Assembly (NCBI RefSeq): GCF_963921235.1
Contig: NC_086108.1
Coordinates: 61,382,001-61,446,000 of the forward strand
Length of the DNA stretch: 64,000 bases
Origin: Mobula hypostoma
Taxonomy: Eukaryota
Direction of reading: 5' to 3'
The notes under the pieces were generated by a model. It was not told where the DNA came from and did not search any database. It saw only the letters and a list, made by a program, of their open reading frames with translations. This document shows positions 3,331 to 63,757 of the stretch, one piece after another. Made by a program: the position numbers and the translations under genes. Numbering within the stretch: the stretch's first letter is position 1; each line of letters begins with the position of its first letter.

Positions 3331-4345
3331 AAGTTCAAGTTCAAGGTTATTGTCATCTGACTCTACATATACTGTACACAACCAAATGAAACAATGTCCT
3401 TCTGGAGCATGGTGCACTCACAAAGTACATATCACACACAGCACATAAACCAAGATATTATCATAAATGTAGCAGTGTGCAAAAGTCTTTAGGCACTTAT
3501 ATATAGCTAGGGTGCCTAAGATCTTTGCACAGTACTGTAGTTGTCAACGTGCAGTAGAGAGCGAGTTTGTAAATCTGGTGGGAGCAAAGGATGCTGGGAA
3601 TGGTAAGGGTGGAGTGCTGTGGGAGGGGTTTGGGACAGGTTGTAGAGAAGGAATGCCAGGGTCATGGGAGGAGCAGGTGCAGACATAGCGAGCCCTGAAA
3701 CACCAGGCGTCATTTCATTTCAAATAATTGGTTAACTGATTATTACTGAATGTTTCTCTCATACCTCCTGCTCATTCTCCTCTACATTCCCCTTTTTCCA
3801 ACCATGATACCCCTCTCCCTGTCTCCTTCCTTCTCTCAGTCCACAATAGAGACCCATGTCAGAATAAGGTTTATCATCACTCACATATGTCATGAAATTT
3901 GTTTTATTTTTGTGGCAGCAATACAGTGCAATAAAATTACTACCTTACTGTGCAAAGATCTTAGGCATCCTAGCCAGATATATGTGCCTAAGACTTTTGC
4001 ACAGTGCTGTAAGTTAATAAAAGTGAAAATGCATGTAGAGCACAGCACAGGAAAACAGTAAACAGCTCGCTGTCCTAGTGACGAGACTTCAGTGCTGGCA
4101 GGGTATTCATTAGTCTCACAGCCTGAGGGAAGAAGCTGTTGTCCCATCTAGCCTTCCTGGTCCTGATACCTCTGTACTTCTTCCTTGAGCTAGTGAGAGA
4201 TGGGTCATTGGGATCCTTTACAATGCTTCCAGCCTTTAGTCTGCAATGCTCTAGGCAAATGTCACACATGGAGGGGATGGTGACACCGGTGATCCTCTCA
4301 ACAGTTTTTACTATTCTCTGTAGGGTCTTGTGGTCCAATGCAATT
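3331..4345 (-). mobile_element. Rex1/Babar-type LINE 3' fragment, interrupted by a MITE
   Basis: ORF 4075-4338 reads DHKTLQRIVKTVERITG..KAGSIVKDPNDPS..RWDNSFFPQAVRLMN; (AAGTTC)n tail at 3331. Confidence 0.8.
3470..4011. mobile_element. Tc1/mariner-type MITE with about 65-bp terminal inverted repeats
   Basis: Left TAGCAGTGTGCAAAAGTCTTTAGGCAC...TTTGCACAGTA is the reverse complement of right TACTGTGCAAAGATCTTAGGCA...CTTTTGCACAGTGCTGTA; TA at both ends; termini resemble Tc1 CAGTG..CAAAAGT. Confidence 0.75.
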
Positions 4346-9134: not shown

Positions 9135-11131
9135 TCATAATGTGTGACAAAACGGCTCCGATACCTGTACCATAAGGGGGCGTATTGCATGCCAATCTGA
9201 TGGCCAGGGATGGGCGAGCAGTTCATCAGATGTTATTATTCTCTTTGTTTCCTTCAATGCTTTTTCACATCTTTCTGACCATTCCGACTTTGCTCCTGTC
9301 TGTAACAGTATGTTCAATGGGTGCAGTACTGAGACAATGTTTGGGAGAAACCAGTGGTAGTAGTTTACAAGGCCCAAGAATGACCTGAATTGTAATACAT
9401 TTTCCAGTTTGGTGCCTGTAGCATTGCTTCAATCTTCTCCTGTGACTTACGTAAGCCATGCTTGTCAATGACATGTCTACAATATGAGATTTCATTCTTG
9501 GAAAAACTCACATTTCACTCTCTTTGTGTGCAGACTGGTAAATACTTACCAAGGTTCTGGTGGCACTGTTCATCACTTTGCCAGTCACAATAAATGTCAT
9601 CAAGGTAACATTGTGTTCCTGGGATATCTTGGAGCACTTGCTCCATTGCTCTTTGCCAAGTTGCAGGAGCTGATGCGATGCCAAAGACGAGACAATTTTA
9701 CTGGTGAGTGTTGAATGTGAGGAATTTCCTGCTCGATTCCTCAATCTTCATTTGCAGATGGGCTTGTGACAAGTCAATCTTTGAAAACCTTTCCCCACCT
9801 GCCAAAGATGCAAAAATGTCTTCTTTTCACAGCAGGGATACTGCACAGTATGCAGCACAAGGTTGATGCTCACCTTGAAATCCCCACATATGCGAATGAC
9901 TCCAGCTTTCCTTTTCTTGATCACCTGGACTATGGGCTCCAATCACTCCACTCAGACTTGGAGTGAATGTCAGATGCTTCTGAGCTCTGAAGTTCAGCAT
10001 CCATTTTAGGACATAGTGTGTAAGGCACTGGACGTGCTTTACGGAATCTTGGTGTTGCTGCTTCATCCAGTTCAATTCTGACATTCCTGCCTTTGAGTTC
10101 ACCAATCCCCTTCTCAAACACCTTCTCATTAGCCTTAAGCAGCTGTGCCAGTCTCTGGATAGAGCTACCATCTTGGCTACTGTTGCCAATTGACGTCATA
10201 CTGAGACCCCTGACTGAGTGGGGTTAACTGTTGTGTTCAGCCTCTGTACATCACATTTACTTTCAGTTTGCCTTTGGGAGACACTTTTTCACCTGTGCAG
10301 GTCTTTTACATCACTGAGGTCTTCTCTAACGATATTTTAGAAAACAGTCTGTAGTAGTCAGCCTCGGGAATTATAGATAAATTTGACCCTGTATCCAGCT
10401 CCATTTTCAGTTTTACACCAGACACATCTATTGTGATCCAGACGATTTTGTGATCTGCTTCAGTTATACTATGCATTTCTAAGCATGACAGTTCACCTTT
10501 GTTAGACTCTATATTGTCTGATTCTGTTTTATATTTAGTAACTTTATGCATTTCTTGGTTTTGTGTTTGAGACTTTTCACCCGGTTGTGCTTTTGATCTG
10601 CTTTGCACATTCTCTTTATGCGACCTTGTCTGTGACACTTTCTGCAGATTTTTTTCTTTGTACCAACAGTCATTTGTATCTTGGGAGGATTTGCCATATC
10701 GATAACATCTTTGGCTTTTTGCACCATTCAGGGACATTTTGCGCATTTCACATTCTAAACTCTTTTTCTGTAGTTCTGCTGCATCCTTTACTGCAGTCTC
10801 TAATGATATTGCAATGCCCGTTCTAAGGTTAGGTCTCTTTCAGATAACAGCCTCTTTTGAGTGCTTTGATGATGCATGTCACATCAACCCTGTCCCTTAA
10901 TGCATCGGAAAGTTCATCTCTAAAGTCACAGTACTGGGAAAGTTTGCGCAGTTCTGCAGTGTATTCAGAAATGTTTTCATCTTTTCTGTGGTTCCTTTTG
11001 TAAAATCTAAATATCTCAGCTATTACAATTGATTTTGGGCTCAAATGATTTTGAAAAATTGTAACAATTTTTCAGGGCTTTTCAGGGGTTATTAAGTTGC
11101 ATAAGAGACTGCGCATATTTGGGCCCATTAA
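9135..11131 (-). pseudogene. Gypsy gag-pol remnants (gag, zinc knuckle, aspartic protease, RT), frameshifted
   Basis: IAEIFRFYKRNHRKDENISEYTAELRKLSQYCDF (gag); CRKCHRQGRIKRMC; KMELDTGSNLSII (protease); PRFRKARPVPY, IRICGDFKVSIN and GLVNYYHWFLPNIVSVLHPLN (RT). Confidence 0.9.
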
Positions 11132-14100
11132 GGCACTGAGTCTGACTCTGTGGTGCAGAAGGGTGGGATGGAGAAGAGGAGAGCTATCGTCATTGGAGAC
11201 TCTATAGTCAGGGGAGCAGACAGGAGATTTTGTGGACGTGAGAAGGACACCCGCATGGTTTGTTGCCTCCCAGGTGCCAGGGTCTGGAATGTCTCTGACC
11301 GGGTGCATGACATCCTGGTACAAGAGGGAAAGCAATCAGAATTTGTGATACATGTTGGTACCAACGATATAGGCAGGAAGAGGGATGAGGTCCTGAAGTG
11401 TGAGTTTCAGGAACTAGGCAGAAGGCTGAAGAACCGGACCACAAGGGTGGCATTCTCAGGATTGCTGCCAGTGCTACGTGACGGTGATGGTAAGAATTAG
11501 AGGGGATGGCAGTTGAATGCATGGCTGAGGAGTTGGTGCAGGGAGCAGGGTTTCAGATTTTTGGATCATTGGGATCTCTTCTGGGGAAGGTGGGATCTGT
11601 ACAGATTGGATGGATTGCACCTGAACTCGAGGGGGAGCAATATCCTTGCAGGTAGGTTTGCTAGCATGGTTCGGGAGGGTTTAAACTAATTTGCGAGGGG
11701 GATGGGACCCAGAGCGATAGAGTAGTGAAAGAAGTGCATGGAGTAAAGCCAGATCTAACAATCAGAGAGGCTTTAAGGAAAGAGAAGCAGAATAAACGGT
11801 GTAAAGGTAGTAAGGTAGAAGGGTTGAAGTGTGTGTACTTCAATGCAAGAAGCATCAGGAACAAAGGTGATGAACTGAGAGCTTGGATACATACGTGGAA
11901 TTATGATGTAGTGGCCATTACAGAGACTAGGCTGGCACCAGGGCAGGAATGGATTCTCAATATTCCTGGATTTCAGTGCTTTAAAAGAGATAGAGAGGGG
12001 GAAGAAGGGGAGGAGGGGTGGCATTACTGGTCAGGGATACTATTACAGCTACAGAAAGGGTGGGTAATGTAGCAGGATCCTCCTTTGAGTTAGTATAGGT
12101 GGAAGTCAGGAACAGGAAGGGAGCAGTTACTCTATTGCGGGTATTCTACAGCCCCCTGGTAGCAGCAGAGATACAGGGGAGCAGATTGGGAGGAAGTTTT
12201 TGGAAAGGTGCAAAAATAACAGGGTTGTTATCATGGGTGACTTCAACTTCCCTAATATTGATTGGCTCCTGTTTAGTTCCAAGGGTTTAGATGGGGCAGA
12301 GTTTCTTAAGTGTGTCCAGGACGGATTCCTGTCACAGTATCTTGACAGGCCGACTAGGGGAAATACCATACTAGATCTAGTACTAGGTAATGAACCGGGT
12401 CAGGTCACAGATCTCTCAGTGGGTGAGCATCTGGGGGACAGTGACAACTGCTCCCTGGCCTTTAACATTATCATGGAAAAGGATAGAATCAGAGAGGACA
12501 GGAAAATTTTTAATTGGGGAAGGGCACATTATGAGGCTAAAAGGCTAGAACTTGCAGGTGTGAATTGAGATGATATTTTTGCAGGGAAATGTACTATGGA
12601 CATGTGGTCGATGTTTAGAGATCTCTTGCAGGATGTTAGGGATAAATTTGTCCCGGTGAGGAAGATAAAGAATGGTAGGGTGAAGGAACCATGGGTGACA
12701 AGTGAGGTGGAAAATCTAGTCAGGTGGAGGAAGGCAGCATACATGAGGTTCAGGAAGCAAGGATCAGAAGGGTCTATTGAGAAATATCGGGAAGCAAGAA
12801 AGGAGCTTAAGAAGGGGCTGAGAAGAGCAAGAAGGGGGCATGAGAAGTCCTTGGCGAGTAAGGTAAAGGAAAATCCCAAGGCATTCTTCAATTATGTGAA
12901 GAAAAAAAGGATGACAGGAGTGAAGGTAGGACCGATTAGAGATAAAGGTGGGAAGATGTGCCTGGAGGCTGTGGAAGTGAGCAAGATCCTCAATGAATAC
13001 TTCTCTTCGGTATTCACCAATGAGAGGGAACTTGATGATGGTGAGGACAATATGAGTGAAGTTGATGTTCTGGAGCATGTTGATATTAAGGGAGAGGAAG
13101 TGCTAGAGTTGTTAAAATACATTAGAACGGATAAGTCCCCGGGGCCTGACGGAATATTCCCCAGGCTGCTCTATGAGGCGAGGGAAGAGATTGCTGAGCC
13201 TCTGGCTAGGATCTTTATGTCCTCGTTGCCCACGGGAATGGTACTGGAGGATTGGAGGGAGACGAATGCTGTCCCCTTGTTCAGAAAAGGCAGTAGGGAT
13301 AGTCCGGGTAATTATAGACCAGTGAGCCTTATGTCTGTGGTGGGAAAGCTGTTGGAAAAGATTCTTAGAGATAGGATCTATGGGCATTTAGAGAATCATG
13401 GTCTGATCAGGAATGGTCAGCATGGCTTTGTGAAGGGCAGATCGTGTCTGACAAGCCTGATAGAGTTCTTTGAGGAGGTGACCAGGCATATAGATGAGGG
13501 TAGTGTAGTGGATGTGATCAACATGGATTTCAGTAAGGTATTTGACAAGGTTCCACATTGTAGGCGTATTCAGAAAGTCAGAAGGCTTGGGATCCAGGGA
13601 AGTTTGGCCAGGTGGATTCAGAATTGGCTTGCCTGCAGAAGGCAGAGAGTCATGGTGGAGGGAGACATTCAGATTGGAGGGTTGTGACTAGTGGTGTCCC
13701 ACAAGGATCGGTTCTGGGACCTCTACTTTTCCTGATTTTTATTAACGACCTGGATGTGGGGGTAGAAGGGTGGGTTGGCAAGTTTGCAGACGACACAAAG
13801 GTTGGTGGTGTTGTAGATAGTGTAGAGGATTGTTGAAGATTGCAGAGAGACATTGATAGGATGCAGAAGTGGGCTGAGAAGTGGCAGATGGAGTTCAACC
13901 CAGAGAAGTGTGAGGTGGTACACTTTGGAAGGACAAACTCCAAGGCAGAGTACAAAGTAAATGGCAGGATACTTGGTAGTGTGGAGGAGCAGAGGGATCT
14001 CAGGGTACATGTCCACAGATCCCTGAAAGTTGCCTCACAGGTAGATAGGGTAGTTAAGAAAGCATATGGGGTGTTAGCTTTCATAAGTTGAGAGACAGAG

Positions 14101-14687
14101 TTTAAGAGTCACGATGTAATGATGCAGCTCTCTAAATCTCTGGTTAGGCCACACGTGGAGTACTGTGTCCAGTTCTGGTCGCCTCACCATAGGAAGGATG
14201 TGGAAGCATTGGAAATGGTACAGAGGAGATTTACCAGGATGCTGCCTGGTTTACAGAGTATGGATAATGATCAGAGATTAAGGGATCTAGGGCTCTACTC
14301 TGGAGAGAAGGAGGATGAGAGGAAGGAAGGAGGAGACATGATAGAGGTATACAAGATATTAAGAGGAATAGATAGAGTAGACAGCCAGCGCCTCTTCCCC
14401 AGGGCACCACTGCTCAATACAAGAGGACATGGCTTTAAGGTAAGGGGTGGGAAGTTCGAGGGGGATATTAGAGGAAGGTTTTTTACTCAGAGAGTGGTTG
14501 GTGTGTGGAATGCACTGCCTGAGTCAGTGGTGGAGGCAGATACACTAGTGAAGTTTAAGAGACTACTGGATGGGTATATGGAGAAATTTAAGGTGGGGGG
14601 GTTATGTGAGAGGCAGGGTTTGAGGGTCGGCACAACATTGTGGGCCGACGGGGCCTGTAATGTGCTGTACTATTCTATGTTCTCTGT
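11132..14687 (+). mobile_element. 5'-truncated CR1 LINE (ORF1 SGNH esterase; ORF2 APE endonuclease-RT) inserted in Gypsy gag
   Basis: ORF1 IGDSIVRG..HVGTND..DGLH; ORF2 [70 protein letters not shown] tail; several stops and frameshifts. Confidence 0.95.
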
Positions 14688-14694
14688 AAGATAT

Positions 14695-14830
14695 CAAGTG
14701 TAGGGGCTTTCTTTTGCTCCTCTACATTGCTTGAGTTACAATGCAGTTCAGTCCTCCCAATATACAACTCTCAGCCTTCATTAGAGCGATCAAATTTGTC
14801 AACTTTGCCAACTGAAGCCATCACCATGTT
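14695..14830 (-). pseudogene. Gypsy gag N-terminus, separated from the rest by the CR1
   Basis: MASVGKVDKFDRSNEG*ELYIGRTELHCNSSNVEEQKKAP continues into LSALMGPNMRSLLCNLITPEKP at 11072-11140. Confidence 0.75.
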
Positions 14831-18337: not shown

Positions 18338-18639
18338 TGTCGCCGATCACCCTGGACCTCGGACTCCTGCTCGGGGTCTCACCCCATTAGCGGATTCACA
18401 GCACCTTGTCCATTCTCTGTCTCTCTCTCTCTCCCGCCTTTTCCCCAAAAACCCGCGCATCACAATATCTTACAGACACACAGAAAGAATAACATCTATC
18501 CTAATTGGTTCATAACATCCTCTTATCAATAACATAATCCAAACAAACTGCTGGTGGGAGGATTTTCTCAGCAGTTAACATAACAAAGAAGCCATTTTAA
18601 TTAGACTACGCAGTAACATAAAAGAAGAAACCCCTTACA
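18338..18639 (-). repeat. 3' LTR, internally deleted (302 bp)
   Basis: Matches 21431-21732 (about 17 substitutions and a CT indel by manual count); starts with TGT. Confidence 0.9.
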
Positions 18640-21027: not shown

Positions 21028-21732
21028 TGTAGCCCCCCCGCCCCCCCATCGGCCAGCCTCAGGGTCACTCAACTCGCTGTTGTCTAGGGAAACAGCCCTC
21101 AGTCCCACCAAACTGGGTAATAGTTTGTGTGGATGCTGTGTGATGTACCCCTCCCTGCCCAAATAACAGACAATACACCAGATACGATTAAATGATTTAC
21201 AGTTTATAGATATTACTGAAACTATATAATTAATAGAGAATAAAATATAAAAGGAAAATAAAAAGTGCCACACTTATCAAAGTTCATTCTCTTCGTGCCC
21301 AAACAGTTGGAGCTCAGGACCCTCCTTCTTCACCCTGCGTCTCCCCTTTGGACCACCTCGACCTGCCACCTGGGACCAACAACGGTGGTCAACCAGACGC
21401 TACACACGAGTCCGTCTCCGTCTCCTTTCCTCGCCGAACACCCTGGACTTCGGACTCCTGCTCGGGGTCCGACCCCATTAGCGGACTCACAGCACCTTGT
21501 TCATCCTCTGTCTCTCTCTCTCTCTCCCGCCTTCTCCCCAAAAACCCGCGCATCACAATATCTTTCAGACACACAGAAAGAATAACATCTATCCCAATTG
21601 GTTCGTAACATCCTCTTATCAATAACATATTCCAAACAAACTGCTAGTGGGAGGACTTTCTCAGCAGTTAACATAACAAAGAAGCCATTTTAATTAGACT
21701 ACGCAGTAATATGAAAGAAGAAACTCCTTACA
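21028..21732 (-). repeat. 5' LTR (705 bp)
   Basis: TGTAGC...CTTACA, bounded by the PBS and the AGGA TSD. Confidence 0.9.
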
Positions 21733-31300: not shown

Positions 31301-31616
31301 ATTCCCCAATGGATATCTTACTATCTTATATTCTTGTTCTCTGCTTCTTCTCTGACCTGCAAATGGAAACATCTTCTCTAATCCATCAAATACTTTCACA
31401 ATTATAAAGACCCTTCAGCCTTCAGATAAAGAGACCCAGTCTGCTCTGATGAATATAACCTCTCAATGTCAATATCATTTCTCAAAGATATTTTTGCAAC
31501 TTTGTCATTACCTTTATGCTCTATTTATAACACACAAAGAAAAATTGTGATTTAAACAAATTCGGAGACAAAATTAAATTCATTTATCTGCTTTTAAATT
31601 TTCTTTGAATGGAAAT

Positions 31617-32830
31617 AAATGGATGTAGTGTACCTGGACTTTCAGAAAGCCTTTGATAAGGTCTCACATAGGAGGTTAGTGGGCAAAATTGGAGCTCATG
31701 GTATTGGGGATAGGGTACTGACATGGATAGAAAGTTGGTTGGCAGACAGGAAACAAAGAGTAGGGATTAACGGGTCCCTTTCAGAATGGCAGGTAGTGAC
31801 TAGTGGGGTACCGCAAGGCTCAGTGCTGGGACCGCAGCTATTCACAATATACATTAACGATTTAGATGAAGGGATTAAAAGTAACATCAGCAAATTTGCA
31901 GATGACACAAAGCTGAGTGGCAGTGTGAAATGTGAGGAGGATGTTATGAGAATGCTGGGTGACTTGGACAGGCTGGGTGAGTGGGCAGATGCATGGCAGA
32001 TGCAGTTTAATATGGATAAATGTGAGGTTATTCACTTTGGTGGCAAGAACAGGAAGGCAGATTACTATCTGAATGGTGTCAAGTTAGGAAAAGGGGAAGT
32101 ACAACGAGATCTAGGTGTCCTTGTTCATCAGTCACTGAAAGTAAGCATGCAGGTACAGCGGGCAGTGAAGAAAGCTAATAGCATGTTGGCCTTCATAACA
32201 AGGGGAGTTGAGTATAGGAGCAAAGAGGTCCTTCTGCAGTTGTACAGGGCCCTGGTGAGACCACACCTGGAGTATTGTGTGCAGTTTTGGTCTCCAAATT
32301 TGAGGAAGGGCATTCTTGCTATTGAGAGAGTGCAGCACAGGTTCACAATGTTAATTCGCAGGATGGCGGGACTGTCATATGTTGAAAGATTGGAGTGACT
32401 GGGCTTGTATACACTGGAATTTAGAAGGATGAAAGGGGATCTGATTGAAACATATAGGATTATTAAGGGATTGGACACGCTAGAGGCAGGAAACATGTTC
32501 CTGATGTTGGGGGAGTCCAGAACCAGAGGCCACAGTTTAAGAATAAGGGGTAGGCCATTTAGAACGGAGTTGAGGAAAAACTTTTTCACCCAGAGAGTTG
32601 TGGATCTGTGGTATGCTCTGCCTCAGAAGGCAGTGGAGGCCAATTCTCTGGATGCTTTCAAGAAAGAATTAGATAGAGCTCTTAAAGATAGTGGAATCAA
32701 GGGATATGGGGAGAAGGTAGGAACGGGGTACTGATTGTCGATGATCAGCCGTGATCACAGTGAATAGCGGTGCTGGCTCGAAGGGCCGAATGGCCTACTC
32801 CTGCACCTAATGCCTATTGTCTATTGTCTA
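31617..32830 (+). mobile_element. 5'-truncated, relatively young CR1 LINE (RT C-terminal half and 3' UTR)
   Basis: ORFs 31619-32398 and 32405-32734 ([43 protein letters not shown]) separated by one in-frame TGA; (CTATTGT)n tail. Confidence 0.95.
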
Positions 32831-37954: not shown

Positions 37955-39355
37955 TCATGAAGGGAGAGAGGCAGAAGAAAGAAAACTATAGACCAGTTAG
38001 CTTGACCTTAGTGGTTGGGAAGATGTTGCAGACGATTATTAAGGATAGGGGCTTAGGGTACCTGGAGGCTCATTATAAAATAAGCCGTAGTCAGCATGGT
38101 TTCATCAAGGGAAAATCTTGCCTAACTAATCTGTTGGAATTCTTTGAAGAAATGACAAGCAGAATAGACAAAGGGGAATCGGTTGATGTTGTGTACTTGA
38201 ATTTTCAGAAGATCTTTTCCAAGGTGCCACACATGAAGCTGCTTAACAAGCTATGAGCCCATGGTATTACAGAAAAGATCCGAGCATGGATAAAGCAGTA
38301 GCTGATTGACAGGCAGCAGAGTGGGGATAAGGGGAGTGTTTTCTGGTTGGCTGCCAGTGACTAGTGGTGTTCCACAGGGTTTGTGTTGGGACAAGTTTTT
38401 TTATGTTATGTATCAATGATTTGGATGATGGTATTAATGGCATTGTTGCAAAGTTTGCAAACAATATGAAGATAGGTGGAGGGGTAGATAGTTCTGAGGA
38501 TGTAGAGTGGCTACTGAAGGACTTAGACAAATTACAAGAATGGGAAAAGAAATGGCAGATGGAATACAGAGTTGGGAAGTGTATGGTCATGCACTTTGGT
38601 AGAAGAAATGAAAGGGTGTACTATTTTCTAAATGGAAAGAAAATGCAAAAAAAAACTGAGGTGCAAAGGGACTTGGGTGTCCTGGTGCAGCATTCCCTAA
38701 ATATAATTTGCAGGTTGAGTCTGTGGTGAGGAAAGCAAATGCAATGGTAGCATTTATTTCAGGAGGACTAGAATATAAAAGCAAGGATATAATATTGAAA
38801 CTTTATAAAACACTGGTGAGGCCTCACTTGGGGTTTGGTGAACAGTTTTGGGCCCCTTTTCTAAGAAAGGATATGCTGAAGCTGGAGAAGGTTCAAAGGA
38901 GGTTCATGAAAATGATTTCGAGTTTGATGTCTCTGGGCCTGTATTCACCAGAATTCAAAAGAATGTGGGGTGACCTCTTGAAACCTATCGAATGGTGAAA
39001 GGCCTTGATAGAGTGAATGTGGAAAGAGTGTTTCCTATGGCAGGAGAGTCTAAGACTAAAGGACACAGCCTCAGAATAGAGGGGTGTTCCTTTAGAATGG
39101 AGATGAGGAAGAATTTCTCTAGCCAGAGAGTGGTGAATCTGTGGAATTTTTTGCCACAGGCAGCTGCAGATGTCAAGTCTTTATGTATATTTAAGGCTAA
39201 GGTTGATAGATTCTTGATTGGTCAGGGCACGAAGGGATACAGAGAGAAGGCAGGAGATTGGGGCTGAGAGGAAAATGGATCAGCCATGATGAAATAGCAG
39301 AGCAAACTCGATGAGCCAAATGGGTTAATTTGGCTCCTGTATCTTATGGTCTTAT
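37955..39355 (+). mobile_element. 5'-truncated CR1 LINE
   Basis: ENYRPVSLT, QHGFIKGKSCLTNLLEFFE, KFANNMK, LVRPHL; TCTTATGGTCTTAT tail. Confidence 0.92.
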
Positions 39356-52105: not shown

Positions 52106-53325
52106 TATGATAGGTTGGTACAAATGATACAAATTATGATACAAATGGAGACATTATGATAGGCAAGAACAAACTGAGGGCTATGAAGTTCAAGCAAGAC
52201 AATTAACAAACAAAGTAATTAAACACTTCATATGAAGATGAGTGCAAAATCTGTGGAGGCTGCTTGACTGAAAACTGTGACTCACAGATCTCTGTAAGGT
52301 AATGGAAGCAGAGGTATTATTGGTTGTGGAATCAAGGCAGAGAAGTGGAGTTAAGAAACAGACCAGTCATGATCTACTTAAATGCTTTTATGTAAGAATA
52401 GTTCATAGGTTCACCTTCAGATTAACACAACAATTGTGTAAAAACCAGAAGTATTGATATCATGATTATGCGAAATAGAGGATAACTAATGGTGCATTTG
52501 GAGAAAGTGTACTAATATAGATGTACAGTCACAGCAGAAAGCCTCCACTAAAATATAAACAGGTTCATTTGTAAACAGTAATCTATGTGATTGCTATAAC
52601 AACAAGGCCATTTGAGTGTTGTTGGAGAACCTAATGGAAGCAGTACATTAATGCTAGTGTCAACAAAAGGATAAAGATTCAGGATATAGTTGATTTGTGA
52701 AGCTCAAGTTGCTTTTCATGGAATTTCTTGTTCCTATGAATAGTACAAAGAGACAGACTGTCTGAAAATCATACGAAAGAAATGGCTGAAGAGCCACCTC
52801 AATGGTATAACAAAAGTTAGAAGACAAGAACATGGAAGATTATGGGCAAGAGACCAAAATGTCATTACAAACAGAAAGACAGTAGGAAATAACAGATAGG
52901 ATGAGCCAGCCTCATGTTATGCAAGAACTAGACAGTCTTATAGTAAATGATGGGAAATTACTCAATGTAATAGTAGACTGCTAGCCTGAGGCATATATCT
53001 GATATGCTCACTTACTCTGAATAATCAAACATAAACTGTCAGAATCATCAAGATACCTGTGGCTAAAACATAATAAATCCATCCCAAGCTCAAATTTATT
53101 CTGATTCACAACTAGTAAAGTGAGACTCATTAAACTTAGTTAGAACCAGTGTCAACAACAAAAGACCAAAGTAAGATACTTGCACCATTAGGATAAGATT
53201 CAGCGTTGTTACGTTTGTAGTAAAACCTCAATGATTATGAATTTCCTACACTTTGTGAAAAGGCTGAAGAATCTGTATGATGTCAACACATTAGCTGGAA
53301 GTTCAAAGTAAACTTATTATCAATG

Positions 53326-53860
53326 AGGGGTGTATGGGGTGTCTAGGGAGGGGTAGCACCTCTGGTGGGGGGGGGCCTGCTGTGCCCTTTTCAGGGCAAC
53401 TCGTCCACCTTTGGTCCCCACCTGGCGCTCAGCTCTCACCTGTGGCTCCAAGTAGCTGTAACACGCGTAGCAGCCACACCCCAGTAAACCGTCTCCGCAG
53501 ACAGGCCAAACCAGGTGAGGGTAGCCGACGGTCTTTGACCCTCGGTGAGGTAGGGGATCTGTCTGTCCCAGCGTGTGAAGTCTGGACCTGGCAGATTGAG
53601 CGGAGGAGACCGATTAATGGTCCAACGGTCAAGAAGGCAGGCCCAGCAGGCGTTGTGGAGCGCTGAGAGCATGACAAGGCACTTAGACGTCCTGGTCATC
53701 CACTGCAGCAGGAGAGGTCTCCAGCCCTAACGGTTGTCCGTGCCACTGGATCAAGGTCTCTTCTGCCGAGAGAGTGGGATTACCCCTGTGCACCGGCTGT
53801 TCCACTTAAAACTTCATCACGCACAGGTTTGTGTCTTCTTCGAATCCGAAGGACTACCAT
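53326..53860 (+). mobile_element. GC-rich non-coding, non-autonomous retroposon, probably derived from an RTE-clade LINE
   Basis: Clean interruption of a Rex 3' UTR; no credible ORF; HDV-like fold at its 5' end. Family assignment is inference. Confidence 0.6.
53327..53521 (+). ncRNA. Predicted HDV-like self-cleaving ribozyme
   Basis: P1 GGGGUGU/ACACCCC, P2 CUCUCACCUGU/ACCAGGUGAGGG, P3 GGC/GCC, L3 UCCAAGUA plus hairpin, P4 CCGUCU-CCGC-AGACAGG, J4/2 CCAA, all in HDV order; P1.1 partner is AG instead of GG. Confidence 0.7.
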
Positions 53861-55182
53861 TACATATATGACAACATATACAATCTTGCAGGCATTCACT
53901 GGGAAACAAAGAAATGTAATAGAATCAATGAACTACGTAAAAAAAAATGCTGACAAACAACCAATTTTTAGAAGAAGAAAAATTGTGCAAATGAAAATAA
54001 ATACATCAATACATAAATAAATAATAACACAGAACATGAGCTGTAGAGTCGTTGACACAACACATCAATGCATTAGCAAATATAAAGGCCTCACAATGGA
54101 CAGCTACTGCAAATTATTTGATTAATTAATTTAAAGATGAGATATTGATCAATTCTGGTTGAAAACAGCTTGCATCAACATAGCCTATTAATATAAAATA
54201 TACAAAACTGCATCGCAAAAGCATAACCAGACAAGAGGCAAAACACCGAGTAGCAGACTTTAAAGAGCTTCTTAAGGAGAAAGAGGTGGCAGAGCGTTTC
54301 TAGAGGACAAGCTAGAACTTAAGTGACAAGACTGGTCAGCTGAAGGAACAGAGGGGATAGTACTATATGAATACAAGAACCATAGAGGCGCGTGAGACTC
54401 CAGGAGTGATGGAGCTAATATGTAGGCCAATGCTGAGAGCTAACTACAAGGATCAGATTGTTAAGATCAAGCACTGCGGAACCTGGATTCGAGTGAATCT
54501 GGTTCAAATAAAACAGTGGCCAGGGAAATTAGAAACTGCTGATTTTGGGGCCATTGCATTAACTGTGTAAGCAAACATCTTTCTGGCTGTGGTGGGAGGA
54601 TGCATGGCTTTAGACGGGAAGACGACGAAGCAGACGAGCTGAGCAGGAGCAGGAGCGGAGGGAATGAAACCATTGGGTTAGAAGCACATAGGTTTTTCGC
54701 TGGAGCCCCATCTCAGGCCCAGGCAGAGTATCAAGACTACAAGCAACCTACAGTACGTCACCCTCAGACTGAACCCAGGGAAGGTAATCACTGGAGAATT
54801 GCTCAGAGAAGGAACAATCAGAATAGACATAGTCGTTTCCAAATTTATGATTTATGAAGTTAATTGTTTTTCCTAATCTTTTCTCTCATTTTGTGCTGAT
54901 CTCCATTCTCATGGCATGAATATATGGATGAAACTGAAAGTATATAAAATATGATGGGCATAGTAGGATAGAGAGTCTTTTTCCCAGGGTGGTAGTGTCA
55001 AGTATCAGCGGACATAGTTTTAAGGTGAAATTTAAAGGATATTTACAAGGTAATTTACTTGAGGCATTGAATGGTAGGTGCCTGGGTGCATTGCCAGGCA
55101 AAATGGTGGCAGCAGATACAAAAGCAGTGTTGGTCAGACACATGAACAGATAGGGAGTAGAAGTATATAGACCAAGTACATG

Positions 55183-59554: not shown

Positions 59555-60835
59555 CACAGGTAGAAAGCAGGATAGACAAAGGAGAGTCTGTGGATGATGT
59601 GTACCTGAATTTTCAAAAGGCCTTTGACAAATTGCCTCACATCAGGCTGCTTAGCAGGATAAGAGCCCATGGTATTACAGGAAAGATTCTAGCATGGACA
59701 AATTCCCCCGGGATTAATAAAGTATGACTATGACTATGACTATGAAAGCAATGGCTGATTGGGAGGAAGAAAAGTGTGGGAGTATAGGGAGCCTTTTCTG
59801 ATTGACTGCCAGTGACTAGTGGTGTTCCAAAGGGGTCAGTGTTGGGACCGTTACATTTTACTTTGTATGTTAATGATTTGGGTGACAGAATTGATGGCCT
59901 TGTGGCCAAATTTACAGACAATGCAAAGATAGCTTGGAGGGGGAGATAGTGCTGAGGAAGCAGGAAGGCTGCAGAAGGATTTATACAGATTAGGAGAATG
60001 GACAAAGAAGTGTCCAATGGAATACAGTTTCAGGAAGTCTATGGTTATGCACTTTGGTAGAAGAAATAAAACTGTAGACTATTTTCTAAATGAGAAGAAA
60101 ATTCAAAAATGTGAGGTGCAAAGGGACTTGGGAGTCTTTGTGCAAGATTCCCTAAATGTTAACTTGCAGGTTGAGTCAGTGGTAAAGAAAACACATGCGA
60201 TGTTAGCATTCATTTCGAGAGGACTAAAATATAAAAACAAGGATGTAATGTTGAGGCTTTATAAAACATTGGTAAGGTTTCACTTGGAGTATTGTGAGCA
60301 GTCTGGGCACCTTAACAAAGAAAGGATATGCTGACATTGGAGAGAGTTCAAAGGAGGTTCATGAAAATGATTCTGGGTATGAAATGCTTATCGCATGCAG
60401 AGAGAGCATTTGACCACTCTGGGCCTGTACTCACTGGAATTTAGAATATTGGGAAGCAGTCATTGAAACCTATCAAATGCTGATATAGCGGATGTAGCCT
60501 AGATATAGTGGATGTTACAAGCATGTTTCCAATAGTGGTGGGGTCTAGGACCAGAGAACACAACCTCCAGAATAGAGGGATGTCCATTTATAATGATGGT
60601 GAGGAAGTTCTTCAGCCAGAGGCTGGTGAATCTGTGGAATTTGTTGCCACAGGCAGCTGTGGAGGTGGGGTTATTGAGTGTATGTAAAGCAGAGGTTGAT
60701 AGATTGAAGATAAGTCAGGTTATGGGGAGAAAGCTGGAGAATGGGGTTGAGCGAGAAATAGATCAGCCATGATCAAATGGTGGAGCAGACTCGATGGCCA
60801 AATAGCTTAATTCTGCTCCAATGTCTTATGGTCTT
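59555..60835 (+). mobile_element. 5'-truncated CR1 LINE
   Basis: DDVYLNFQKAFDK, GVPKGSVLGP, KFTDNAK; ORF 60017-60334; TCTTATGGTCT tail; same subfamily type as 37955-39355. Confidence 0.9.
59699..59744 (+). mobile_element. Extremely 5'-truncated Rex-type LINE tail inserted in the CR1
   Basis: AAATTCCCCCGGGATTAATAAAG followed by (TATGAC)n interrupts CR1 GCATGGA|AAAGCA; compare intact GCATGGATAAAGCA at 38284. Confidence 0.7.
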
Positions 60836-60839
60836 TAAA

Positions 60840-61152
60840 GCCATGATGAAGGTGGCACATGGCATGCTTACCTTCATAGGTTAGGGCCTAGAATATACCG
60901 GTTAGGCTATACTTGGGACATTGTGTGCATTTCTGGTCACCACACTATGGGAAGGATGTGGTTGTGTTGGAGAAAGTGCAGGGGGGATTCACTAGTACAT
61001 TGTCTAAATTGGAGGGATATAGTTCTGAGGAGGGACTGGATAGGCTGAGCTATCTCCTGGAGCAAAAGGGCCTGACGGATGACCCAACAGAAGAACGTAA
61101 GATTATGAGAATCACAGATAGAGTAGATAATAAAAATCTTTTTCCCATGGTT
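60840..61152 (+). mobile_element. Degraded CR1 fragment
   Basis: ORF 60913-61212 reads HCVHFWSPHYGKDVVVLEKVQGGFT..DRVDNKNLFP. Confidence 0.75.
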
Positions 61153-63264
61153 CATTTGTGTGTTCATCCATCCTGCAATGATGAGAAACACTCTAACTAT
61201 CCGCTGAACTAGTCTGTGGGTACGCAGGCGGCTGGACAGGCCAATCCACACTTGAAAATTCTTTGGCGGTGTGGACAAAAGATGGCAGCCGCGTTGGGCT
61301 GCGGGTCACTGGCTTGGGCTTTCCTGGCCAGCCTATGTCTCTCTGCTGCAATTGTCCCTTCTGCCTCATGCGTGACTGCATCGAGCTGGTGGGCAGAGTG
61401 CCACTCAACCCAATCCTGGGTGACATGTTCCCATGTGTCTGGGTTGATGCCAAAGGCTTTTAGTAAAGTTTTCAGAGTGTCTTTACAACATTTCCTTTGG
61501 CTTCTGTGGGAATGCTTTCGTTTACATAGTGCACCATAAAACAGTCTCTTAGACAGCTGATGGTCTGGCCTGAGCTACATGACCTGCCCAGTGTAACTGG
61601 AACTGCATCAGGAAAGTGTAGATACAGGACAGGCCCACCTTAGTAAGTATCTCAGTGTCAGGAATTCTATTTTGCCACTTAATGCTGAGGAGCTTTGCGA
61701 GGCCGACTGTATGGAAATGGTTCAATTTCTTGGCATGCTGTTGGTACACTGTCCATATTTCACAGGCCTAAAGCAGAGTGGGAAGAACTATGACTCTATA
61801 AACATTCTGCTTCGTCTGTAGACTTATACCTCTTCTGTTCAGGACGACGGTATGAAGTCTACCTAAGGGTACACTTCCTTTGCCAATCCTAGTGTTTACT
61901 TCATCGTCAATGGCAATGTTCTGGGACTGTGTGATGCTAAGATACGTGAACCTATTCACTGGGTTGAGCCTTTGGCTATTGATTATGATGTTTGGCTCAA
62001 TGTATCATTTCCCCGGTGCATTACTTCAGTCTTCTTGGTGTTGATGGTAAGCCCAAAATTGGTACATGCATCAGAAAACATGTCAACGCTGCACTGCATA
62101 TCATCTTCTGAGTCAGCATTAAGGGCACAGTCATCAGCAAACAGGAGCTTTTCTGTTAGTACTGCACCTCCTTCCCCATGGGCCTCAGCTGGTATTGCAT
62201 CTGATCCAGGAGCTTTGCTGCTAGAGAGCAGATGTATTGCTGCCTGTGTCTCTGCTAAGGTCAGTGGGACATCCAGTGCTTCCTTGACAGGTACTTGGGG
62301 CAGGTGATTAGTGGCTTTGTCATTTATAGTCGAAGGATGATTCAGAACACTTTTAAAGTACTCAGCCCACCTATGAAGAGTTTTCTCTTTTTCCATGATC
62401 AGTGTGTTCCCACGAGCACTAAGGAGAGGGGAAGATCCTGATGATGTGGGGCCATAGACTTCTTTTAGTGCAGTGTAGAAGTTCTTTAAATCATACTTAT
62501 CTGCGTACATCTGGATCTCATCAGCTTTATTGCTCAACCAGGAATCCTGCATCAAGCACAGTTTGTGTTGAACAGTCTTTGATCTACTATTGAAGGCATC
62601 CTTCTTTGAGATGGACTTAGGGTCACTGAGGAAAGCATTGTAGAGTCGATGTTTCTCATCCAGCAGTTGTTCGATGTTGACACAGTTTTCATCAAACCAG
62701 TCCTTGTGCTTTCTGGTTGCAGGCCCCACAAACTCCGTAGCAGTGTTGTAGATCAGTTCTCAAAGGGTTGACCAAGCAGCTTCCACATTCTGATTGTCCG
62801 GAGGGCAGGATTTTAAGTGGTCTTCCAGAGGGTCAACAAAAGACTGCTTTATGTTGCTGCTTACCAGCTTGGAGACATTCTGCTGTCTTGGGGCTTTCTT
62901 TCCATGAGGGCGTCTCTTAGGCTGGATATGGATGTTCAGATTAGAAATGATGAGTCAATGGTCTATGCAGCATTCAGCACTGCACACAGATTTTGTCACC
63001 TTTACATCTTGCCCGTCTCTCTTCCTGACAATGATGTAGACAATTAGGTGCCAGTACTTAGAGCGGGGATGCATCCACGAAGTTCTGTTACAGGTGGGAA
63101 AGCAGAGACTGTGCTGGTGATTAACAATTCATGTTCAGCTCATGTCTGAAGTAGTAGAAGACTGTTGTACTTGCAGCGGCCAACACCATCATTCCCAATG
63201 ACCCCACCTCTGGAATTGATGTTAGAAGCTACTCTTGGGTTGAGATCACCAAGGATGATAAGTT

Positions 63265-63757
63265 CGAAGATGGGAGAATTTGTAGATGCTGGAAATCCAA
63301 GCAAACACACACAAAATGCTTGAGGAACTCAGCAGGCCAGGCAGCATCTATGGAAAAGAGTAAACAGTCAACGTTTCGGGCCAAGATCCTTCATCAGGAC
63401 TGAAAAATAAATGATGAGGAGTTAGAGCAAGAAGGTGAGGGGAGGGAAGGAAGTAGTACAAGGTGGTAGGTGATAGGGGAAACCAGGAGGGGGGAGGGGT
63501 GAAGTAAAGAGCTGGGAAGCTGATTGGTGAAAGAGATAAAGGGCTGGAGAAGGGGGAATCTGATAAGAGAGGATAGAAGACCATGGAAGGAAGAAAAGGA
63601 GAAGAGCATCAGAGGGAGGTGGTAAGCAAGTAAGGAGATAATGTGAGAGAGAGAAAAACAGGAATGGGAACGCTGAGGGGTCTCAACCCAAAATGTTGAC
63701 TGGTTACTCTTTTCCATAGATGCTGCATGGCCTGCTGAGTTCCTCCAGCATTTTGTG
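63265..63757. mobile_element. Penelope-type insertion with inverted terminal arms, nested in the RTE
   Basis: Arms at about 63312-63390 and 63675-63757 are inverted repeats; TSD AAGGATGATAAGTT (63251-63264) / AAGAATGATAAGTT (63758-63771). Confidence 0.8.
63365..63402 (-). ncRNA. Minimal type I hammerhead ribozyme motif
   Basis: Minus strand CAGUC-CUGAUGA-AGGAUCUUGGCCC-GAAA-CGUU-GACUG: stem I CAGUC/GACUG, intact CUGAUGA and GAAA core boxes, palindromic ACGU stem III. Confidence 0.75.

Follow-up and report, generated by a model that had tools for sequence, protein, structure and literature searches.

A ribozyme-headed short element of Mobula hypostoma and its proposed origin from an RTE-like LINE by repeated joining at a predicted long-range stem

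The window, a stretch of 64,000 nucleotides from Mobula hypostoma (NC_086108.1), contains at positions 53327..53859 of the + strand an insertion that a preliminary description presented as a short non-coding retroposon headed by an HDV-like ribozyme. The locus raises the question of what kind of element carries such a ribozyme and how its short copies come into being. The reading that we favour, at a probability of roughly two in three, is that the parent is an RTE-like LINE with a 5′ HDV-like ribozyme, whose short copies were remade repeatedly at a predicted long-range stem.

The insertion was compared by blastn with two full-length copies (L031 and L033) of a ~4.0-kb APE/RT LINE, referred to here as family A, and matched nt 1-508 and the last ~30 nt of the LINE. 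The whole insertion is thus bipartite, a decayed copy of this RTE-like LINE with an internal deletion, in which LINE nt 1-503 (5′ UTR) are fused to the last ~30 nt. Downstream of the ribozyme, alignment to LINE copies places the rest of the kept 5′ UTR, up to LINE nt 503, at 53522..53830 (+). [quoted passage not shown] According to 3′-end alignments, the LINE 3′ terminus with its terminal hairpin and CTA/CCA tail occupies 53831..53859 (+), the match to the LINE 3′ end being 53833-53859. A possible degenerate target-site duplication (TSD), read from the sequence at 53317..53326 (+) with a partner at 53860-53871, is not clean, and no clean TSD was found around the window copy by TSD scripts.

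Three copies extended past nt 508, and longer stretches of them led to the 4.0-kb LINE with its endonuclease and RT domains. The LINE has a single ORF with APE and RT and no ORF1, a short 3′ UTR, a CTA/CCA microsatellite tail and variable TSDs. Intact homologues, at 55-62% identity, each consist of one ORF of 1030-1090 aa in which only APE/RT domains are present, and a PDB search gave only L1, R2 and group II RTs. The LINE is called RTE-like from its architecture and motifs. Short copies of family A consist of the 5′ and 3′ ends of the autonomous LINE and have TSDs (7-17 bp in 42 of 70), which is the anatomy of SIDEs or bipartite elements. Judged from these alignments, the ribozyme belongs to an autonomous APE/RT LINE, of which the short element is a copy that lost its interior. 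A search of the animal's own genome (3.48 Gb) returned 40 scored matches, 39 besides the window, with 89-93% identity over ~530 nt. The number of family-A copies with the sampled region was estimated from two overlapping samples (26 × 48 / 14) as ~90, a lower bound. The 3418 candidates of a first look were rejected as a copy number, the remainder beyond family A being sister families.

The rest of the window is rich in CR1-like RT fragments. CR1-like LINE copies are found at 11665-14703 (+; almost complete, its APE/RT ORF being broken), 31600-32800, 38150-39350 and 59560-60840. A decayed, internally deleted RTE-like ORF is located at 61983-62759 (-), and a match (L390) to the 5′ UTR of sister family D lies on the same strand just past the window end. 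Direct repeats of ~300 nt (18340-18639 and 21431-21732; 85-95%), which flank a C-rich stretch at a spacing of 3.09 kb, may mark an LTR-type or similar element, and a 177-aa frame at 10306-10839 (-) resembles by eye the Gag/protease part of an LTR retrotransposon in decayed form. Short MITE-like elements with terminal inverted repeats of 53 and 84 nt are present at 3489-3991 and 63310-63757.

Family-A junctions were sampled by searching for two exact patterns that lie upstream of the join, which gave 26 and 48 hits, 14 of them shared, and so 60 copies. These comprised 28 joins at the base of the stem, 10 within it or at its top, 19 long copies and 3 others. The 38 short copies contained 29 junction strings, all at the base, within or at the top of the predicted stem; the commonest was present in 10 of the 38, and its eight aligned copies have no variant in common. 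Among all 92 copies, for which sampling was mixed, 54 base joins with 31 strings and 14 top joins, all different, were counted (copies L142 and L086, which join elsewhere, were excluded). A hand count that started from the 3′ end gave 28 bipartite copies among 55 exact 3′-end hits, one of them joining from nt 485.

In base joins, the 5′ part ends at nt 503-505 and the sequence resumes at nt 3994-3996. The base junction is 0-20 nt long, with the modal length in 14 of 54 cases; upstream, length changes affect 3.3% per 10-nt window. An insert starting with A, with 1-5 extra A, is carried by 28 of the 54. Insert bases, which are not independent counts, were A in 71 of 95 cases at the joins (a tally that took in three misparsed rows) versus 10 of 33 at 5′ junctions, where the extras are mixed. 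Inserts of top-of-stem joins are not rich in A. Contigs of other organisms (runs X1, X10 and X11) contain an identical join with AT, AAT or AAAA between the two parts; these may be orthologous insertions, not new events. Spliceosomal splicing was considered and rejected: AG|GU is present at nt 499/500 and AG at nt 3993, yet no junction joins them, and at least GUU is kept. Other internal deletions are frequent in long copies (L061, L064, L100, L118, L123, L125, L139, L142 and L144), and one copy (L048) shows an apparent double jump from 508 to ~531-541 to 3981.

The stem predicted in full-length family-A copies pairs nt 504-521 with nt 3976-3993 (17 of 18 pairs) and is the best ungapped helix of the 3′ segment against the whole element (35.5 vs 25). 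Shuffling gave p values of 0.01-0.03 in four of the eight long copies tried and was not significant in the other four. The ungapped-helix scan replaced a duplex-energy scan that missed the stem in the positive control, where it chose a G-rich site in J1/2 of the ribozyme.

A search with the ribozyme core pattern retrieved 143 hits and led to sister families B, C, D and E. Family D is an older LINE, for which the stem site was predicted first and 13 3′ ends were then aligned. In D, nt 503-521 form 18 of 19 possible pairs with the 19 nt that precede the terminal hairpin; the sequence is unrelated to that of family A, and the helix is the best of 900 nt (34.5 vs 26.5). Three of 28 family-D loci join at or near the stem, most D copies being long. 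Family C, an older short family for which no LINE parent was found, is joined at the position homologous to the stem base of A, with one spacer length in 26 of 30 copies (the sample came from a whole-element query and is biased accordingly). In family E, a young short family with 840 exact 28-mer hits, one hairpin join with four loop strings is present in 27 of 30 copies, and a 12-bp hairpin is kept at the homologous place; in the single long family-E copy the helix is shorter, has one mismatch and lies outside the top four helices. Families C and E are uniform in structure, with fixed joins at the homologous place, SINE-like and abundant. Copies of family E (L395-L454, with LINE copy L455), which are bipartite and ribozyme-headed, are 95-96% identical to each other.

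Family B (L241-L284) consists of nt 1-380 of A, and so of a whole ribozyme, plus a piece from elsewhere, ~140 nt and the tail of another LINE. It is a hybrid short family with 148 exact 25-mer hits and a near-uniform small hairpin junction, and as a hybrid of two LINEs it resembles R2/R1 hybrid SIDEs. The added part, which in copy L283 continues into an ORF, presumably resembles BovB-type 5′ sequence.

The same scan was applied to 14 metagenome RTEs for which both ends were available. Their best helix lay 260-400 nt before the ORF in only four cases (3.6% expected, p 0.001), and a top-3 helix did so in nine; the helices are only 8-12 bp, and this interval was picked after the family-A stem was known. 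The result is suggestive.

The origin that we favour for the short elements may be described as follows. Within a read-through host transcript, the ribozyme would cut before G1. The helix, if formed in vivo, would loop the LINE RNA and place the 5′ UTR beside the 3′ end, and RT primed at the 3′ hairpin would cross over to the 5′ UTR. For base joins, cutting or trimming would bring the looped RNA down to the base of the stem, the 5′ piece would gain a short A tail, and RT would jump end-to-end from the 3′ piece onto the A-tailed 5′ piece. Top-of-stem joins look like template switches that would happen once RT has read through the stem. An occasional bipartite product may turn master and amplify as a SINE-like family, as proposed for C and E. 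The stem would likely steer recurrent deletion during retrotransposition. The modal cut, 504/3995, has RNase III geometry, corresponding to a 2-nt 3′ overhang on the excised part; no Drosha-type lower stem was seen there.

The same stem could also act on uncut RNA, with RT stalling at the duplex, adding untemplated T and resuming on the neighbouring 5′ strand. No additional enzyme would be required, R2 RT is able to add T at initiation, base joins have a sharply defined 3′ side (nt 3994-3996), which a stall would produce, and some 5′-truncated copies stop near the stem (3971, 3986). According to PMC11581009, untemplated additions by an R2-derived RT are mostly purines, and the enzyme jumps to template 3′ ends; the purine preference would give T or C, not A, on the sense strand. 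The mixed 5′-junction extras and the composition of the top-of-stem inserts also speak against stalling, which we consider unlikely. A cut and an A-tailed 5′ piece are favoured because the properties of the R2-derived RT, albeit another RT, would not yield sense-strand A.

The preliminary description had supposed a SINE-like family without a Pol III promoter. The second part stands: no tRNA was found, and no box A/B pattern is present in the window copy or in family A. The first part corresponds to a conventional family in which one or a few short masters were amplified, junction variety having arisen later or within masters. One junction in 10 of 38 copies, some pairs with a common junction and variants, and the behaviour of families C and E are what such a family would produce. 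Against it, there are 29 strings in 38 copies, all 14 top joins differ, and the copies of the commonest junction are not united by a variant. The tree of 71 copies is a star (internal branches make up 6.7% of its length), short copies form no clade, and no site separates short from long among these 71. Non-CpG divergence is 3.5-4.1% in all copy classes, the short copies being of the same age as the long ones. Copies with the same junction shared 0.89 variants vs 0.67 for others, a difference that is not significant (p 0.17). Some re-amplification of short copies has occurred, because the window copy and copy L023 have an identical junction string and four variants in common. By these comparisons, the behaviour of the short copies of family A is not that of a single SINE family, and we regard an origin from few masters as improbable. 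Frequent A>G or T>C changes at non-CpG sites nt 133, 235, 238, 269 and 352 may reflect weak sub-lineages or editing.

Deletion at the DNA level after insertion, provoked by the 18-bp inverted repeat, is still less probable. Breakpoints do sit at the inverted repeat, and non-homologous recombination is the origin favoured for R2 SIDEs in PMC3414825. However, about two in three copies are affected, there are oligo-A inserts, both arms are gone to within 1-2 nt in base joins, and family D, with an equal repeat and a greater age, is yet mostly long.

The remaining question is whether the 5′ structure is that of an HDV-like ribozyme. The P1 5′ strand (53327..53333, +) forms 7 of 7 pairs with 53476-82, with cleavage predicted directly 5′ of G53327. 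It is followed by a J1/2 of 99 nt (53334..53432, +), for which RNAfold predicts nested stems sequestering most of a second GGGGUGU; the outer stem is the same in the window copy and in four family majorities. The 5′ strands of P2 (53433-43) and P3 (53444-46) occupy 53433..53446 (+) and are identical in families A, C, D and E; their partners are 53510-21, with C53511 bulged, and 53473-75. The L3 core (53447..53454, +) keeps the equivalents of U20, C21, C22 and G25, in what we take to be the genomic HDV numbering; in the four-family comparison, U, C, C, G and the last A are identical. An extra hairpin (53455-71, within 53455..53472, +) is inserted in L3 between the equivalents of 27 and 28. Next come, at 53473..53488 (+), the 3′ strands of P3 (53473-75) and P1 (53476-82), P1.1, which is GG in the copy majority and a decayed AG here, and J1.1/4. 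P4 (53489..53504, +) is properly paired at 53489-94/53499-504, and 53505..53521 (+) holds the unpaired G53505 (G74 equivalent), the putative catalytic C53506, J4/2 and the P2 3′ strand.

As can be seen, the segments that the preliminary description had arranged in HDV order (P1, P2, P3, L3, the hairpin, AG at 53483-84, C53506) are all present; its P4 helix holds as well, with the exception of the proposed end at 53505. The majority of 30 copies restores G at 53483 (24 of 30), which confirms the CpG decay it had proposed for P1.1, and also G at 53472, 53496 and 53503 and C at 53468. Position 53506 is C in 28 of 30 aligned copies and in all four families, while 53507 varies between C and U. In the window copy, pair 2 of P4 is a C-A mismatch, and the L3 hairpin is weaker than the 5 bp of the family. 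With a custom HDV descriptor, the family majority scores 11, a value reached by none of 1000 dinucleotide shuffles (best 10). The majorities of families A and C both pass with the nested double-pseudoknot order P1, P2, P3, P1.1, P4; the window copy fails at P1.1, and 13 of 71 copies pass. The HDV-type fold is a family property, and the window copy is probably crippled by decay of P1.1 and P4. Plain MFE folding of the window element gave no signal (z -0.29), as expected of a pseudoknot. An Rfam scan gave no hit in the window to E 10 and none in copies L007 and L240 to E 5. Owing to the hairpin insert of 18-20 nt, L3 measures 26-28 nt, longer than the compact L3 of ~8 nt. An alternative P3, in which GCU at 53455-57 closes an 8-nt L3, was disfavoured, since P3 and P1 would then be separated by 18 nt and the conserved hairpin would be lost.

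Families A, C and D agree at 56/58 core positions; identity is lower elsewhere, with 13/21 around P4, 13/18 across the L3 insert, 73/98 across J1/2 and 155/309 downstream. P1, P2, P3 and P1.1 pair in each of families A, C, D and E. Across these four, P4 shows compensatory, two-sided changes at three pairs (2, 4 and 5); no two-sided changes were found in P1, P2, P3 or the L3 hairpin, P1-P3 being invariant save for one G-U. Among four related families such identity comes in part from ancestry. J4/2 reads CCAA or CUAA, its first C always kept, and the L3 residues U, C, C and G and the J4/2 C and A are invariant. Family E has GG-GCAA-C after P1 and an L3 of UCCCCGUA, both of which we take to be close to genomic HDV. 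The extra L3 hairpin of the preliminary description is a family feature: its outer four pairs are invariant in the four family majorities, and the loop varies in length and sequence. The preliminary description had also proposed covariation among copies as a test; it is absent within family A and present in P4 between families. Its absence among copies would mislead as a refutation, because the tree of the copies is a star and their decay is neutral. Neither nhmmer nor blastn found homologues of the ribozyme in 77 metagenome RTE loci, and the HDV descriptor gave only weak hits there, of a kind also present in reverse-complement controls. In the L3 hairpin loop (equivalent to window 53460-53467), a 6-nt palindrome reads GCAUGC in C and E and GCUAGC in D and is lost in A. 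The swap, a single event, preserves self-complementarity, and the loop is a possible kissing-loop dimer site.

The 5′ boundary was determined from 32 family-A copies with a clean TSD, of which 19 start at nt 1, 7 at nt 2-8 and 6 are truncated. The first base of the element is G53327 itself, the position of predicted cleavage, as the preliminary description had placed it to within 1 nt; G53336, its alternative, drops out, none of the 32 copies starting at nt 10, the second GGGGUGU. In contigs of another organism, loose ends occur at nt 1 (115) and nt 5 (127). Family-A RNA likely cut itself from host transcripts by means of the predicted ribozyme. That the structure is instead a promoter or protein-binding element, its boundary being a transcription start, is very improbable: the lack of an Rfam hit and of covariation in P1-P3, an L3 insertion that could block the active site, and the promoter Pr77 of L1Tc, a precedent for such ends (PMC3383444), are outweighed by the full HDV order with correct spacing (0/1000 shuffles), the C conserved at the catalytic place beside a variable neighbour, the P4 covariation and the coincidence of boundary and predicted cut.

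The favoured reading, a ribozyme-headed RTE-like LINE with short copies remade at the stem, can be extended, though we would bet against the extension as a whole. RTE-type RNAs might generally be looped by a 5′ UTR/3′ helix ~310-350 nt before the ORF, cut at its base on both strands, A-tailed and rejoined end-to-end, so that each round can deliver a ribozyme-headed SINE precursor. This would be a general reason for bipartite SINEs, and among active HDV-like folds the family-A ribozyme would be the first to carry a helix grafted into L3. On the favoured reading itself, family A shows the birth stage, with dozens of separate joins at a single RNA helix, while families C and E show the end stage. 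The origin question for bipartite elements becomes testable by mutating the 18-bp helix. If the RNA does cleave, its insertion in L3 broadens the HDV fold and accounts for misses by standard searches.

HDV-like ribozymes are described at the 5′ ends of RTE, R2 and L1Tc/ingi non-LTR retrotransposons (PMC5786205, PMC6765202, PMC3774820). The family-A ribozyme resembles those of R2 and RTE in its nested double-pseudoknot order, its long J1/2 (216-498 nt reported for R2) and a predicted cut at the first base of the element; a duplicated P1 5′ strand is also discussed for R2. Unlike in these, L3 of family A holds an inserted hairpin kept in four families. No report of such an insertion was found in the literature searched, which lay outside Ruminski 2011, Webb and Luptak 2011, Repbase and supplements, and its novelty is uncertain. 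In the same searched literature, no report of an RTE 5′/3′ helix as a breakpoint was found.

Ribozyme-headed, internally deleted LINEs are already known as R2 SIDEs of Drosophila (PMC3414825) and NARTc/RIME of trypanosomes (PMC4035085); like these, family-A short copies are non-autonomous, combine a LINE 5′ ribozyme with a LINE 3′ end and have no Pol III promoter. R2 SIDEs form few, old, single-origin families, whereas family A has dozens of independent joins at one structural site, and, unlike them, it derives from an APE-type LINE with dispersed insertion sites and TSDs of 7-17 bp. Family A shares with U6/L1 chimeras (PMC6789731) the repeated joining of two pieces of RNA, at variable junctions, ahead of retrotransposition or in its course; it differs in that the joined pieces are the two ends of a single RNA and the structural site is fixed, and its A inserts fit tailing or untemplated addition better than RtcB ligation of a cyclic phosphate. 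RTE UTRs serve as gene-writing templates (PMC13708176), for which a 5′/3′ helix favouring cargo-skipping would matter.

Bipartite RTE derivatives are common: RTESINE1/2, WALLSI3 and Bov-A (PMC5786205, PMC7245038) combine, as in family A, the 5′ UTR and 3′ terminus of an RTE-type LINE, and families C and E are of that kind. According to Kojima 2018 (PMC5786205), few LINE groups make bipartite derivatives, “for unknown reasons”; the stem is a candidate answer to why RTE LINEs spawn them. Unlike the elements of Kojima, in those described here a 5′/3′ stem marks the breakpoints, and family A probably shows the birth stage with its many junctions. What is likely new is the proposed stem-guided, recurrent origin of bipartite elements.
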